Of a DNA stretch of 64,000 nt, positions 4,787-32,227 are shown piece after piece. The translations under genes were made by a program, and so were the position numbers. This stretch comes from a virus (taxonomy: Duplodnaviria; Caudoviricetes): IMG/VR virus record IMGVR_UViG_3300049846_001081; one strand, written 5' to 3'. The notes under the pieces are model-generated. The model did not search any database. It had not been told where the DNA came from and saw only the letters and a list, made by a program, of their open reading frames with translations. Numbering within the stretch: the stretch's first letter is position 1; every line of letters begins with the position of its first letter.

Positions 4787-5001
4787 GTGCCGGATTCAAA
4801 GGGGACATTACTCCCAAAAAAGACAAAGAATTGAGATTGTATATTAGAAATAGAGAAGTAGATAAAATAATTAAACAATATAAAAATTTTAAAAAATATC
4901 AAAAATCTTCTATTTTTGAGATTGAAAAATTATCTGGAAAAGAAACAAAGATAGACAAATTAATTAACGAATATGGGATAGATCCTGAAGCAATTGAATA
5001 A
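4783..5001 (+). CDS. Hypothetical protein
   Basis: 72 aa ORF with overlapping start/stop on both sides. Confidence 0.65.
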   Translation: MSAGFKGDITPKKDKELRLYIRNREVDKIIKQYKNFKKYQKSSIFEIEKLSGKETKIDKLINEYGIDPEAIE

Positions 5002-5327
5002 TGGGAAAGCATTACTTACTTAACTTATATGGATGCTCGTTTGTCCTTTTGGACGACGAGCGTTGTCTTATTGATCTATTAGAAAACGCAGCAGTTGCTA
5101 GTGGAGCTACAGTAGTTCAGACTATCTCAAAAAAGTTTGAACCACAAGGCGTAACTGTGATTTGCTTGTTATCTGAAAGTCATATTAGCATTCATACATG
5201 GCCTGAGGAAGGTAAGGCGGCTGTGGATGTTTATACTTGCGGAGACTGTAATCCGAAGATTGGGTGTGATATTATTATCCAACAACTTTATGCTACTAAT
5301 CATACGTTAAGTTATATTGAACGGTAA
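5001..5327 (+). CDS. speD: S-adenosylmethionine decarboxylase proenzyme
   Basis: LLSESHISIHTWPE self-cleavage motif and DVYTCG motif. Confidence 0.95.
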   Translation: MGKHYLLNLYGCSFVLLDDERCLIDLLENAAVASGATVVQTISKKFEPQGVTVICLLSESHISIHTWPEEGKAAVDVYTCGDCNPKIGCDIIIQQLYATNHTLSYIER

Positions 5328-5337
5328 CAAATGTTAC
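5324..5337. promoter_or_regulatory. Candidate NtcA-binding site
   Basis: GTA-ACAAATGT-TAC matches GTA-N8-TAC, is nearly palindromic, and lies 8 nt upstream of a -35 box. Confidence 0.5.
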
Positions 5338-5345
5338 AAAAGTGC

Positions 5346-5375
5346 TTGTCTATATAGTGTAACTAGAGGTATAAT
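5346..5375 (+). promoter_or_regulatory. Sigma70-type promoter for the riboswitch/DUF4278 unit
   Basis: TTGTCT(5346-5351)-18 nt-TATAAT(5370-5375). Confidence 0.6.
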
Positions 5376-5385
5376 AATCCTCTAA

Positions 5386-5685
5386 CGTTCATCCTATGAC
5401 TAAAGCACTTTTGCTTTTAGCATGGGTTCCACTTCTCTCTGTTTCAGCGCCACATGTTATTGCTACTTCTCAAGTATCAGTCACTTGTGACACCGCGATG
5501 GAACTAATGGACATCGTTAAAAACGACGATGTAGTAATTCAAAGAGTAGAAGACCGATTGCTATTAGAACTCCGAAAGGATTTCATAAAAGTGTGTAACT
5601 GAATAGGACGGAAGTAAGCCGACGCGGAACGGATCGTTCATTCGCTATTCGCAAATAGCGAACGCAAACGCCGACTGAAGGAACG
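5386..5685 (+). ncRNA. Glutamine riboswitch region (glnA / Downstream-peptide type)
   Basis: P1 strands CGTTC (5386, 5635) and GAACG (5627, 5681). Junction CGGAAGTAA at 5609-5617 and TGAAG at 5676-5680. Hairpin TTCGCTATT/AATAGCGAA at 5641-5662. A DUF4278-type ORF follows. Confidence 0.75.
5396..5602 (+). CDS. Hypothetical 68 aa protein with hydrophobic N-terminus, nested in the riboswitch
   Basis: The ORF is bounded by the complementary TCCTAT (5392-5397) and ATAGGA (5603-5608). Confidence 0.6.
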   Translation: MTKALLLLAWVPLLSVSAPHVIATSQVSVTCDTAMELMDIVKNDDVVIQRVEDRLLLELRKDFIKVCN

Positions 5686-5717
5686 CTCTTTAACCTAAAA
5701 AACTAAGGAGAACCCTA

Positions 5718-5855
5718 ATGTCTAAAGTCGTATATCGTGGTGTTGAGTATGACACTGAAAAGCGTCTTCAATACCAACAACAGATGATGCAACAACCTCA
5801 ACAATACAACGAAACCTATCGTGGTGTTAAGTTTGTAAAGGAGGGGCACAAATGA
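5718..5855 (+). CDS. DUF4278-family peptide (45 aa, IF17/GifB N-terminal-like), not in the ORF track
   Basis: MSKVVYRGVEYD…ETYRGVKF contains two YRGV motifs; SD AAGGAG; lies downstream of the glutamine aptamer. Confidence 0.8.
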   Translation: MSKVVYRGVEYDTEKRLQYQQQMMQQPQQYNETYRGVKFVKEGHK

Positions 5856-5953
5856 ATACTTACTTCGTTCGTTATCTTAAGAGGAAAGCAAAGAAGGAAA
5901 AACTCCTTCATAACGCACAACTGAATATGGCAAAGCAACCACAAGTTGCTTGA
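5852..5953 (+). CDS. Small basic peptide (33 aa, MNTYFVRYLKRKAKKEKLLHNAQLNMAKQPQVA), not in the ORF track
   Basis: ATGA overlap with the DUF4278 stop, SD GGAGG upstream, terminator directly after. Confidence 0.6.
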   Translation: MNTYFVRYLKRKAKKEKLLHNAQLNMAKQPQVA

Positions 5954-5957
5954 TTTT

Positions 5958-5994
5958 AAGAGGGGTTGACTACCCCTCTTTTTTTGTGTATAAT
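5958..5994 (+). terminator. Intrinsic terminator overlapping the next sigma70 promoter
   Basis: AAGAGGGG-TTGACTA-CCCCTCTT followed by a T run. The loop TTGACT (5966-5971) sits 17 nt before TATAAT (5989-5994). Confidence 0.85.
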
Positions 5995-6017
5995 TACCTT
6001 TGTCAGGGTTGATAAAA

Positions 6018-6197
6018 ATGGATAAAGAAAAGCTTAAGCTAATTGTCAGAAACCTTGAGTCTCTGGTAGAATGTTTAAAGTCAGAGATTTATTCTGACGT
6101 GGATGCTTATAAACAAGAACCACAATACGAAGAAATTGCCCCTTACCTAACTGATTACGACGAAGTATTTTATGACGACGATGGATATCCCGACTGA
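6018..6197 (+). CDS. Hypothetical acidic protein
   Basis: MDKEKLKLIVRNL…YDEVFYDDD; start placed at ATG 6018. Confidence 0.65.
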   Translation: MDKEKLKLIVRNLESLVECLKSEIYSDVDAYKQEPQYEEIAPYLTDYDEVFYDDDGYPD

Positions 6198-6897
6198 TTT
6201 TGAGTTCATGAAACCAGAAGTAAAACTCATTAGTGTTACTCCCGATGCTGAAAAACATATGGCATATTGTGCTCGGGTAAGTAACCCTTCAAATCAAGAG
6301 AATGAAAAGTTCTCCGGACTTCTTAAATATTGTATTCAGCATCAACACTGGAGTATTTTTGAGCAAGCCAGTATGACTGTTGAGATTAATACAACTCGTG
6401 GTCTGGCAGCTCAAATTCTTCGCCATAGGTCTTTTACATATCAAGAATTTTCACAACGATATGCTGATGCAAATCTATTGAATAAAACTATTCCTCTTCC
6501 TGAATTACGTAGGCAGGATACAAAGAATCGTCAGAACTCCATTGATGATATTCCCGACTATTTAAAGTTAACACTAACAGAAGACATTCGTGTTCATTTT
6601 GAGCATGGTTTACGCCTCTACAACCGCCTTCTGGAGAAAGGAGTGGCAAAGGAGTGTGCAAGGTTTGTATTGCCCCTGGCAACGCCCACAAGACTCTATA
6701 TGACCGGTTCTGTGCGTTCTTGGATCCATTACATTGATCTACGGTCTGCACACGGCACACAGAAAGAACATATGGAGATTGCTGAACTCGTTCGTTGTAT
6801 CTTTACTTGTCAGTTCCCTGCAGTATCTGAAGCACTTGGTTGGAAACGAGATGGTTGTTCTGAGTGTAATGATGCACCCTCTATCACTATTGAATAA
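6181..6897 (+). CDS. thyX: Flavin-dependent thymidylate synthase
   Basis: RHRSFTYQEFSQRY signature, HWSIFE and ARFVLP motifs. Confidence 0.96.
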   Translation: MDIPTDFEFMKPEVKLISVTPDAEKHMAYCARVSNPSNQENEKFSGLLKYCIQHQHWSIFEQASMTVEINTTRGLAAQILRHRSFTYQEFSQRYADANLLNKTIPLPELRRQDTKNRQNSIDDIPDYLKLTLTEDIRVHFEHGLRLYNRLLEKGVAKECARFVLPLATPTRLYMTGSVRSWIHYIDLRSAHGTQKEHMEIAELVRCIFTCQFPAVSEALGWKRDGCSECNDAPSITIE

Positions 6898-7176: not shown

Positions 7177-7932
7177 ATGCCTGCTAAAAGAAATACTCCG
7201 AAGTCACCTGTTCCATTTGGTATGAGTAACCGTCAAATGAAACGCAAGAAACCAATTAATCTTGATATCATGCGGACTATTGAACCGCTAACTGAAAATC
7301 AAGAGCAGTTTTTTAAAGATTATAAGCAAGATCAAAACATCGTTGCATATGGCTGTGCTGGAACAGGTAAAACTTTCATCGCACTTTACAATGCATTGAA
7401 AGATGTATTGGATGAAAGATCTCCATATGATAAGATTTATATTGTCCGTTCTCTGGTAGCAACAAGAGAAATTGGATTTCTTCCTGGAGACCATGAAGAT
7501 AAATCTTCACTTTATCAAATTCCTTATAAGAATATGGTGAAGTATATGTTTGAGATGCCTGATGATGCATCATTTGAAATGCTCTACGGAAATCTCAAAA
7601 CTCAAGGAACAATTAGTTTTTGGAGCACTTCTTTTATTCGTGGAACAACACTTGATAATGCAATCATTATTGTTGATGAATTCCAGAACTTGAATTTCCA
7701 CGAACTTGATTCTATCATCACTCGTGTTGGTGAAAACTCTAAGATTCTTTTCTGTGGTGATGCTACTCAGTCAGACTTAGTGAAGACAAATGAGAAGAAT
7801 GGTATTATTGACTTCATGAGAATTCTTCGGATCATGCCGTCGTTTAATGTCATTGAGTTTGGTGCAGAAGATATTGTTCGTTCTGGACTCGTTAAGGAAT
7901 ATATTCTTGCAAAACTGGAACTGAACATATGA
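7177..7932 (+). CDS. phoH: PhoH-family ATPase
   Basis: GCAGTGKT Walker A, RGTTLDNAIIIVDEFQN and GDATQSDL motifs. Confidence 0.95.
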   Translation: MPAKRNTPKSPVPFGMSNRQMKRKKPINLDIMRTIEPLTENQEQFFKDYKQDQNIVAYGCAGTGKTFIALYNALKDVLDERSPYDKIYIVRSLVATREIGFLPGDHEDKSSLYQIPYKNMVKYMFEMPDDASFEMLYGNLKTQGTISFWSTSFIRGTTLDNAIIIVDEFQNLNFHELDSIITRVGENSKILFCGDATQSDLVKTNEKNGIIDFMRILRIMPSFNVIEFGAEDIVRSGLVKEYILAKLELNI

Positions 7933-31754: not shown

Positions 31755-31838
31755 GCGAGTATGGCGGAATCGGTAGACGCACCGGACTTAAAATCCGTTG
31801 GGGGCAACCCTGTGGGAGTTCAAGTCTCCCTACTCGCA
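31755..31838 (+). tRNA. tRNA-Leu (anticodon TAA)
   Basis: Acceptor stem GCGAGTA/TACTCGC, D arm GGCGGAATCGGTAGACGC, anticodon loop CT-TAA-AA, long variable arm, GTTCAAGTC T loop; CCA not encoded. Confidence 0.95.
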
Positions 31839-32154: not shown

Positions 32155-32227
32155 GCCCTTGTAGCTCAGATGGTAGAGCACCGCTTTTGTAAAGCGGTTG
32201 TCGCAAGTTCAAGTCTTGTCGGGGGCT
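32155..32227 (+). tRNA. tRNA-Thr (anticodon TGT)
   Basis: Acceptor stem GCCCTTG/CGGGGGC, D arm TAGCTCAGATGGTAGAGC, CCGCT-TT-TGT-AA-AGCGG, GTTCAAGTC T loop; CCA not encoded. Confidence 0.93.

Follow-up and report, generated by a model that had tools for sequence, protein, structure and literature searches.

A 64,000-nucleotide (nt) stretch of DNA from a T4-like cyanomyovirus (IMG/VR record IMGVR_UViG_3300049846_001081), hereafter the window, contains what is probably a double glutamine riboswitch with a complete gene nested inside one of its hairpins. The best explanation of the region, to which we assign a probability of about 0.7, is that two glutamine-binding-type cores lie back to back and are interlocked through a shared helix P3, that the inner core is circularly permuted while the outer one closes across a 68-codon gene, and that this double aptamer is the first element of a short phage operon extending from a promoter at 5346–5375 to a terminator at 5958–5987. 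Coordinates are those of the window, and all elements of the riboswitch unit lie on its plus strand.

An earlier reading made from the letters alone (the sequence-only reading) had recognised the elements of a class I three-way junction with an open reading frame (ORF) in P2, and each motif occurs where it was placed: CGTTC at 5386–5390, TCCTAT at 5392–5397, ATAGGA at 5603–5608, CGGAAGTAA at 5609–5617, TGAAG at 5676–5680 and GAACG at 5681–5685. In the RNA, CGUUC (5386–5390) pairs with GAACG (5681–5685) to form the outer P1, which is separated by a conserved A (5391) from an outer P2 that closes across the 205-nt ORF loop through UCCUAU (5392–5397) and AUAGGA (5603–5608). The 5' arm of P2 includes the A and U of the nested start codon, and the 3' arm begins immediately 3' of the nested stop codon. 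P2 is followed by the outer junction CGGAAGUAA (5609–5617) and by P3, whose strands GCCGACG (5618–5624) and CGCCGAC (5669–5675) form five of seven possible pairs and enclose the second core in place of a loop. The closing segment (5676–5686) consists of U-GAAG (the type I E-loop element, 5676–5680), the distal GAACG and C5686. Both the junction, whose conserved part is ACGGAAGUA (5608–5616), and GAAG (5677–5680) fit the consensus of the Rfam family Glutamine (RF01739).

Structural work on both glutamine riboswitch classes has described a long-range linchpin pair between the junction base that follows CG and the base that follows the GAACG strand (PMC6698751). The bases that contact the ligand are the first C:G and G:C pairs of P1 and the G of ACG (PMC6698751), and by sequence these are present in both cores of the window. 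To follow the linchpins we used an alignment of 104 distinct 3' modules from relatives; pair numbers given below are alignment columns. The outer linchpin G5611:C5686 (pair 9:90) is CG in 60 modules and GC in 44, with none unpaired, and its equivalent is paired in 238/238 loci of a larger set. The innermost P3 pair, G5624:C5669 (22:71), is UA in 50 modules, GC in 30 and AU in 21, again with none unpaired (101/101 covarying). P3 pairs 16:79 and 21:72 are invariant G:C and C:G, and 18:76 and 19:75 are paired in 97–99% of modules, in line with the imperfect P3 of the sequence-only reading. Two relatives (L303 and L304, ~690–1040) carry a single type I aptamer whose P3 is a plain hairpin and whose P2 contains an ORF of the family of the nested gene, a form that may resemble the ancestral state of the double one. 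Further, in the minimum free energy (MFE) fold of the compact homologue in phage S-CREM1 the first CGUUC is paired to the last GAACG, and the GAACG and CGUUC strands that lie between them pair with each other. The linchpin covariation, the two single-aptamer loci and the fold of the compact homologue together identify the distal GAACG as the partner strand of the outer P1. These comparisons support the reading of the P1, P2, junction and linchpin elements of 5386–5686 as a glutamine-I-type three-way junction. In the MFE fold of 5382–5725 (z score −3.26) UCCUAU still pairs with AUAGGA from either side of the ORF, and the inner hairpin is present. The outer core was undetected in Rfam scans at the gathering score and at E values up to 10; the model can span neither a 205-nt insert nor an interlocked topology.

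The inner core begins with a second GAACG (5627–5631), which is absent from the sequence-only reading. Together with a GAU loop (5632–5634) and CGUUC (5635–5639) it forms the inner P1 hairpin (5627–5639). An inner P2 hairpin that is compact in the window (5641–5662), and whose five closing pairs all change on both sides in relatives, is followed by the inner junction CGCAAA (5663–5668). The linchpin base of this junction, C5665, partners G5632 in the loop that caps the inner P1; this pair (31:67) is GC in 97 relatives, CG in five, AU in one and unpaired in one, and thus paired in 99% of the 104. The capping loop itself measures 3–6 nt in 242/243 loci. The three long-range pairs (9:90, 31:67 and 22:71) are Watson-Crick in 99–100% of the 104 relatives, with two to three pair types each, and at least seven Watson-Crick-consistent combinations of the three are seen, so that compensatory changes must have arisen independently several times. 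Rfam matches RF01739 to 5633–5689 with 33.1 bits (gathering score 35; E 2.9e-5 in a 701-nt search). The sequence-only reading had placed a compact, class II-like aptamer here; the match is to the type I model, and Glutamine-II (RF01704) gave no match at E up to 10 in 5300–6000. Among the relatives, the loop capping the inner P1 is extended by a 44-nt stem-loop in L289 (~905–960), and in L073 (3778–3886) a 43-nt AT-rich repeat hairpin serves as the inner P2.

The same strands can be connected in other ways. Two independent tandem aptamers, one at 5386–5631 with the ORF in its hairpin and 5627–5631 as the 3' strand of P1, the other at 5635–5685, would respect the linear order of the elements and would resemble the tandem glnA RNAs on record (PMC2864571); Rfam, moreover, aligns such linear readings, with 35.6 bits for 788–833 of L002 and the 33.1 bits obtained for 5633–5689 of the window. 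The linchpins that this arrangement requires, however, are G5611.G5632 and C5665.C5686 in the window, both mismatched, and the corresponding alignment pairs 9:31 and 67:90 are each unpaired in 45 of 104 relatives (56.7% paired) as compared with 99–100% for the crossed pairs. Covarying pair 22:71 joins the two halves that would have to be independent, the compact S-CREM1 RNA has the nested fold as its MFE fold, and L303/L304 have a P3 hairpin where the entire inner module would be. We therefore judge a tandem arrangement to be very improbable. The sequence-only reading had instead proposed a switch, in which the outer fold and a compact fold at 5635–5685 compete for 5681–5685 and translation of the nested ORF chooses between them. 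Because the four P1 strands share their sequences, CGUUC 5635–5639 is indeed able to pair with either GAACG; the compact fold has its Rfam score of 33.1 bits, and strand 5681–5685 would be free while a ribosome occupies 5386–5397. Yet the comparison does not support a shared P1 strand. The compact fold would have a C.C linchpin in the window and an unpaired one in 45 of 104 relatives (43%), which makes it unlikely as a selected ligand-binding state; CGUUC 5635–5639 has a GAACG of its own in the local hairpin 5627–5639 that MFE folds predict, and the loop base G5632 covaries with C5665. A switch of this kind is accordingly improbable. In the interlocked reading the two cores need not compete, because the inner one is closed by its own strand, 5627–5631.

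The placement of a gene within the aptamer recurs among relatives. Two pattern scans of IMG/VR returned at least 120 loci each, at least 240 in all, of which 239 were parsed. Among the 239 loci listed, the first hairpin (outer P2) contains an ORF in 64 and the second (inner P2) in 141; both hairpins do so in 17 of the first 124 loci listed. The closing five pairs of these ORF-bearing hairpins are formed in 96% (first hairpin) and 98% (second hairpin) of cases among the loci listed, and the fraction drops to 32–54% when the partner strand is slid (32–52% for the first hairpin). Positions 3–5 of the closing helices show several pair types. Covariation of the TCCTAT/ATAGGA-type helix across ORF-bearing homologues, which the sequence-only reading had named as a check, is thus borne out. 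Chance is no explanation for an arrangement seen this often (64 and 141 of 239 loci) with paired closing helices. In all 204 ORF-bearing hairpins listed, the ATG lies 9–13 nt after the C of CGUUCA, within the 5' arm.

The phages S-PM2 and S-CREM1, whose loci have no ORF in the hairpins and are nearly identical in the 3' module, have two compact aptamer units in the same place, between a promoter and a DUF4278 gene, and the S-CREM1 locus bears a glnA riboswitch annotation. Positions 5603–5690 of the window have an almost identical counterpart in the 3' module of S-CREM1, in which a 10-nt stem-loop replaces TCCTAT, the ORF and ATAGGA as the first hairpin. DSL-LC02 combines a compact first hairpin with a second one that contains a 50-codon ORF. 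The second-hairpin ORFs are paralogous to the nested gene, and 131/140 of them end with a UGA or UAA that lies just ahead of the last GAACG. ORFs of this kind, in L002 and about 130 further loci, read through the 3' arm of the hairpin and the CGCAA junction, and their last residues (for instance DAKAD or DAKVD) are therefore dictated by the aptamer core. A ribosome that terminates on a second-hairpin ORF would stand about 40 nt before the start of the DUF4278 gene, from where re-initiation is conceivable. A second type of first-hairpin ORF, found in L046 and its relatives, encodes a 67-amino-acid (aa) protein that matches phrog_6471 (E 3e-28); these ORFs end at +9, at a UAA inside the conserved junction CGCAAGUAAG.

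The nested gene of the window spans 5396–5602, with the ATG at 5396–5398 and 68 codons followed by TGA (5600–5602). Its 68-aa product has relatives that form 253 clusters at 90% identity, all 66–72 aa in length, and the family is encoded on 271 IMG/VR contigs. When loci were fetched by protein (n = 80), CGUUCA preceded the ATG by 10 nt and the stop codon was followed by the junction in nearly all of them. Pairwise ratios of nonsynonymous to synonymous substitution rates (dN/dS) are 0.33 for the window type and 0.17 for the second first-hairpin type, and the comparative data indicate that the nested ORF is a real gene under purifying selection. All nested ORFs fall in one BLAST cluster, and a comparison of profiles connects the window type both with the second-hairpin family (91.7% probability, E 8e-7) and with the other first-hairpin type (97.7% probability). 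Four residues, M1, C31, L55 and C67, are invariant. An AlphaFold model (mean predicted local distance difference test score of 68.8) shows a helical hairpin composed of H31-43 and H49-67 with the cysteines at the helix ends and a hydrophobic N-terminus modelled at low confidence, and on this model the nested proteins are predicted to be a two-cysteine helical-hairpin family. In three relatives (L249, L255 and L312, ~690–920), the promoter and the ORF are kept, CGUUCA is changed to CAGUUCA, and a terminator follows the ORF directly; the 3' half of the aptamer, the DUF4278 gene and the 33-aa ORF that accompanies it are deleted. The nested protein is thus useful on its own, since promoter and ORF are kept after loss of the riboswitch.

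Searches with the nested protein gave no match that points to a function. A tblastn search against 50,697 GenBank phage records gave no match, Pfam gave nothing better than E 0.036 for 49 members of the family, PHROG gave no match for the window-type protein, and Foldseek gave none in the Protein Data Bank (PDB) at E up to 0.001. The best feature in the ESM Atlas (0.82) was only to unnamed viral clusters. A single match was obtained in GTDB genomes, to a 3.7-kb contig of a metagenome-assembled genome that bears the same junction sequence and that we read as a mis-binned phage fragment. We rejected the candidate NblA, for which neither a Pfam NblA match at E up to 1 (49 members) nor a Foldseek match in the PDB at E up to 0.001 was found; the idea had come from the title of a paper in which "riboswitch" denotes a theophylline tool.

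The nested ORF might nevertheless be a passenger that sits in an insertion-tolerant loop and borrows the promoter without regulatory coupling, much as endonuclease ORFs do in loops of group I introns; the sensor would then act on untranslated or already translated mRNA. Other insertions are tolerated, as the 43-nt hairpin of L073 and the 44-nt stem-loop of L289 illustrate, presence of the ORF is polymorphic between near-identical riboswitches (S-CREM1 and the window), and ORF and promoter outlast the riboswitch and the DUF4278 gene in L249, L255 and L312. A mere passenger, however, does not readily account for the confinement of every ATG to +9 to +13 in the 5' arm of all 204 ORF-bearing hairpins, or for stop codons at or within the 3' arm or junction, including the 131/140 second-hairpin stops just before the last GAACG. 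The overlap of ribosome sites with P1, P2 and junction is a fixed feature, although shared descent may explain part of it. We regard uncoupled carriage as a minor but real possibility. It can also be asked whether insertion of the ORF broke the first aptamer and left its flanking halves as relics. The lack of any Rfam aptamer spanning the ORF agrees with such decay, but every core nucleotide is intact, the closing helix is paired in 96% of cases with compensatory changes, and linchpin G5611:C5686 covaries without exception. True decay has a different appearance, as in L249/L312, where CAGUUCA is found and the 3' half is gone. Hence we give almost no credence to a decayed riboswitch.

Downstream of the double aptamer, MFE folds predict an expression platform (5686–5710) in which the anti-Shine-Dalgarno (anti-SD) segment CUCUUUA (5686–5692) pairs with UAAGGAG (5704–5710). 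C5686 is common to the outer linchpin and to this anti-SD helix. Among relatives with a C after the last GAACG, the SD is paired and that C lies in the helix in 38/42 distinct platforms. The platform precedes a 45-aa DUF4278 (IF17-like) peptide with two YRG motifs (5718–5855). The peptide scores 19.5 bits (E 0.0013) against Pfam DUF4278 (PF14105), below the 25.3 cut-off; 38/41 relatives match the family at E up to 0.01 (best 1.4e-7), in agreement with the assignment made by the sequence-only reading. It further matches phrog_5049 (E 6e-12), and at least two YRG motifs are present in 210/217 of its relatives. Short picocyanobacterial IF17-like proteins are known to be without the C-terminal part that is needed for glutamine synthetase binding in Synechocystis (PMC6212724). 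The peptide gene is followed by a basic 33-aa ORF (5852–5953) whose ATG overlaps the preceding TGA (ATGA), an arrangement that recurs in L073 and L275; the 33-aa ORF had no Pfam or PHROG match.

The unit is bounded by candidate transcription signals. A sigma-70-like promoter (5346–5375) combines TTGTCT, an 18-nt spacer and TATAAT (5370–5375) with 10/12 matches, and a −10-like hexamer ends 7–10 nt before the first CGUUC in 102/225 relatives. We infer that the transcript starts at about 5381–5384, 2–5 nt ahead of P1. An intrinsic-terminator-like hairpin (5958–5980) with a T run, together 5958–5987, ends the unit. Upstream of the promoter, the NtcA-like box GTA-N8-TAC (5324–5337) overlaps the stop codon of speD. 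Such a box occurs no more than 120 nt upstream of the first CGUUC in 179/225 distinct relatives, as compared with eight expected from shuffles, and usually lies 44–48 nt from it; the link to NtcA drawn by the sequence-only reading is strengthened accordingly, and we regard 5324–5337 as a candidate NtcA site. Its distance to the −10 box, about 32 nt, exceeds the canonical 22 nt by one helical turn, and in a subset of relatives it lies 5 nt before CGUUC. Metatranscriptome contigs in four RNA libraries cover ~5375–5950 and little or nothing beyond, and one 368-nt contig of a relative covers 5375–5714. These contigs, from runs that were chosen with this stretch, cannot reveal starts, ends or a single transcript, and their uncovered flanks are no evidence, since flanks in relatives may simply differ; they provide a weak hint that the riboswitch unit is transcribed.

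The unit lies between speD (5001–5327; PF02675, E 5e-35) and a thymidylate synthase ORF (6172–6897) recognised by synteny with the Td gene of S-PM2, beyond which an ORF at 7177–7932 is putatively PhoH-like. A strong promoter-like site (5966–5994; TTGACT, 17 nt, TATAAT; 11/12 matches) overlaps the terminator of the riboswitch unit and lies ahead of an ORF at 6000/6018–6197. Elsewhere in the window, a PhotoRC-II RNA was found at 148–254 (40.9 bits, gathering score 39), together with two tRNA genes at 31755–31838 and 32155–32227.

Several observations weigh against the interlocked double aptamer with its nested gene. The case for its topology is made by three long-range pairs, thermodynamic folds and one relative with a single aptamer; the relatives were gathered with a DNA pattern in which part of the core is fixed, and kinship inflates the covariation counts. 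P1 strands are invariant, hence P1 pairing itself shows no covariation, and P3 has mostly C.A and A.C at two of its seven positions. The sole Rfam score is that of the linear reading 5633–5689, and it falls short of the gathering score. Where a G follows the last GAACG (the S-PM2 type, with 117 distinct platforms), no anti-SD helix uses this base, and the platform must therefore work differently. As to the nested gene, its AUG is without a Shine-Dalgarno sequence and the inferred leader is very short, and the free-standing ORFs of L249, L255 and L312 demonstrate that expression does not need the aptamer.

How the locus might operate is suggested by the gifB leader of Synechocystis, for which a mechanism has been proposed in which glutamine binding frees a C from an inhibitory helix and turns translation on (PMC6212724). 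By analogy, binding of glutamine to the phage RNA would fix linchpin G5611:C5686, C5686 would thereby leave the anti-SD helix (5686–5692/5704–5710), and translation of the DUF4278 peptide would be switched on. The nested AUG lies in the 5' arm of P2; P1 starts 10 nt before it, and the inferred 5' end is ~13 nt away. From this geometry, a ribosome initiating at AUG 5396 would cover 5386–5397, including strands of P1 and P2, and one terminating at UGA 5600 would cover the junction at 5603–5617. The outer sensor could thus not fold while the nested gene is translated, and the converse would hold too, because a ribosome would cover P1, P2 or junction. At low glutamine, the nested protein would be made, ribosomes would keep the sensor open and the IF17-like peptide would be off. 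At high glutamine, the outer core would fold, hide the nested AUG and free the downstream SD. It is tempting to speculate that the locus acts as a two-output, translation-coupled nitrogen switch. That the RNA binds glutamine, that binding turns the peptide ON and that translation competes with folding are inferences, and we put the switch forward tentatively and with less than even confidence.

Complete ORFs in peripheral loops of structured RNAs, with helices that pair across them, are found in group I and group II introns. The RNA of the window differs from these in that it is a metabolite sensor by type, its ORF encodes no homing endonuclease or maturase, and the start codon lies inside the closing helix. 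In leader-peptide attenuation, as in trp and erm, the position of a ribosome on a short upstream ORF decides the RNA fold. The phage locus would be similar in that a ribosome on the upstream ORF would set downstream expression; it differs in that the ORF encodes a conserved, functional protein inside an aptamer and in that the signal would be an RNA-bound metabolite rather than stalling.

With glutamine-I RNAs (the glnA motif, RF01739, for example the gifB leader, PMC6212724), the window shares the CGUUC/GAACG P1, the A that precedes P2, the ACGGAAGUA junction, GAAG, the long-range G:C linchpin, a position ahead of a DUF4278 gene and an SD-sequestering helix that includes the linchpin C. Unlike these RNAs, the window RNA is phage-encoded, its P2 loop is a 205-nt coding gene, its P3 is a helix shared with a permuted second core instead of a hairpin, and its outer core is missed by the covariance model. 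Glutamine-II RNAs (RF01704; PMC6698751) resemble the inner core in having CGCA for CGGAA, a G after GAACG, no GAAG and a CGUUC/GAACG helix built from strands other than the 5' and 3' ends, and they are likewise tied to DUF4278 peptides of marine picocyanobacteria. The inner core, in contrast, has no pseudoknot with a P2 helix around the start region, and its GAACG precedes its CGUUC. Tandem riboswitches (glycine; tandem glnA, PMC2864571) also combine two cores for the same ligand in one leader, whereas the cores of the window are not side by side and have a shared P3 and crossed P1 and linchpin partners. A literature search, mostly of journals outside subscription, revealed no description of a riboswitch aptamer that contains a gene, and none of a glutamine riboswitch with interlocked cores.

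A previous survey counted no more than two glutamine aptamers in cyanophages and drew the conclusion that riboswitches are rarely used by phages (PMC5473149). Pattern and protein scans returned at least 240 and 271 viral contigs, respectively, and the interlocked, ORF-bearing layout would explain why phage riboswitches are scarce in covariance-model scans. Aptamers are usually treated as compact, non-coding domains; here, a ligand-binding-type core closes across a gene. If folding and translation compete, the RNA would be a natural metabolite sensor that is read out via ribosome traffic. The phage would then have placed a sensor on the nitrogen-status circuit of globally abundant picocyanobacteria, comprising an NtcA box, glutamine and an IF17-like peptide, and a single RNA would give different small proteins depending on whether the host is nitrogen-starved or nitrogen-replete. 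In that case the nested two-cysteine proteins would be phage effectors of a new class, used under nitrogen starvation, and a so far unstudied family of small two-cysteine phage proteins comes with a testable condition for its expression.

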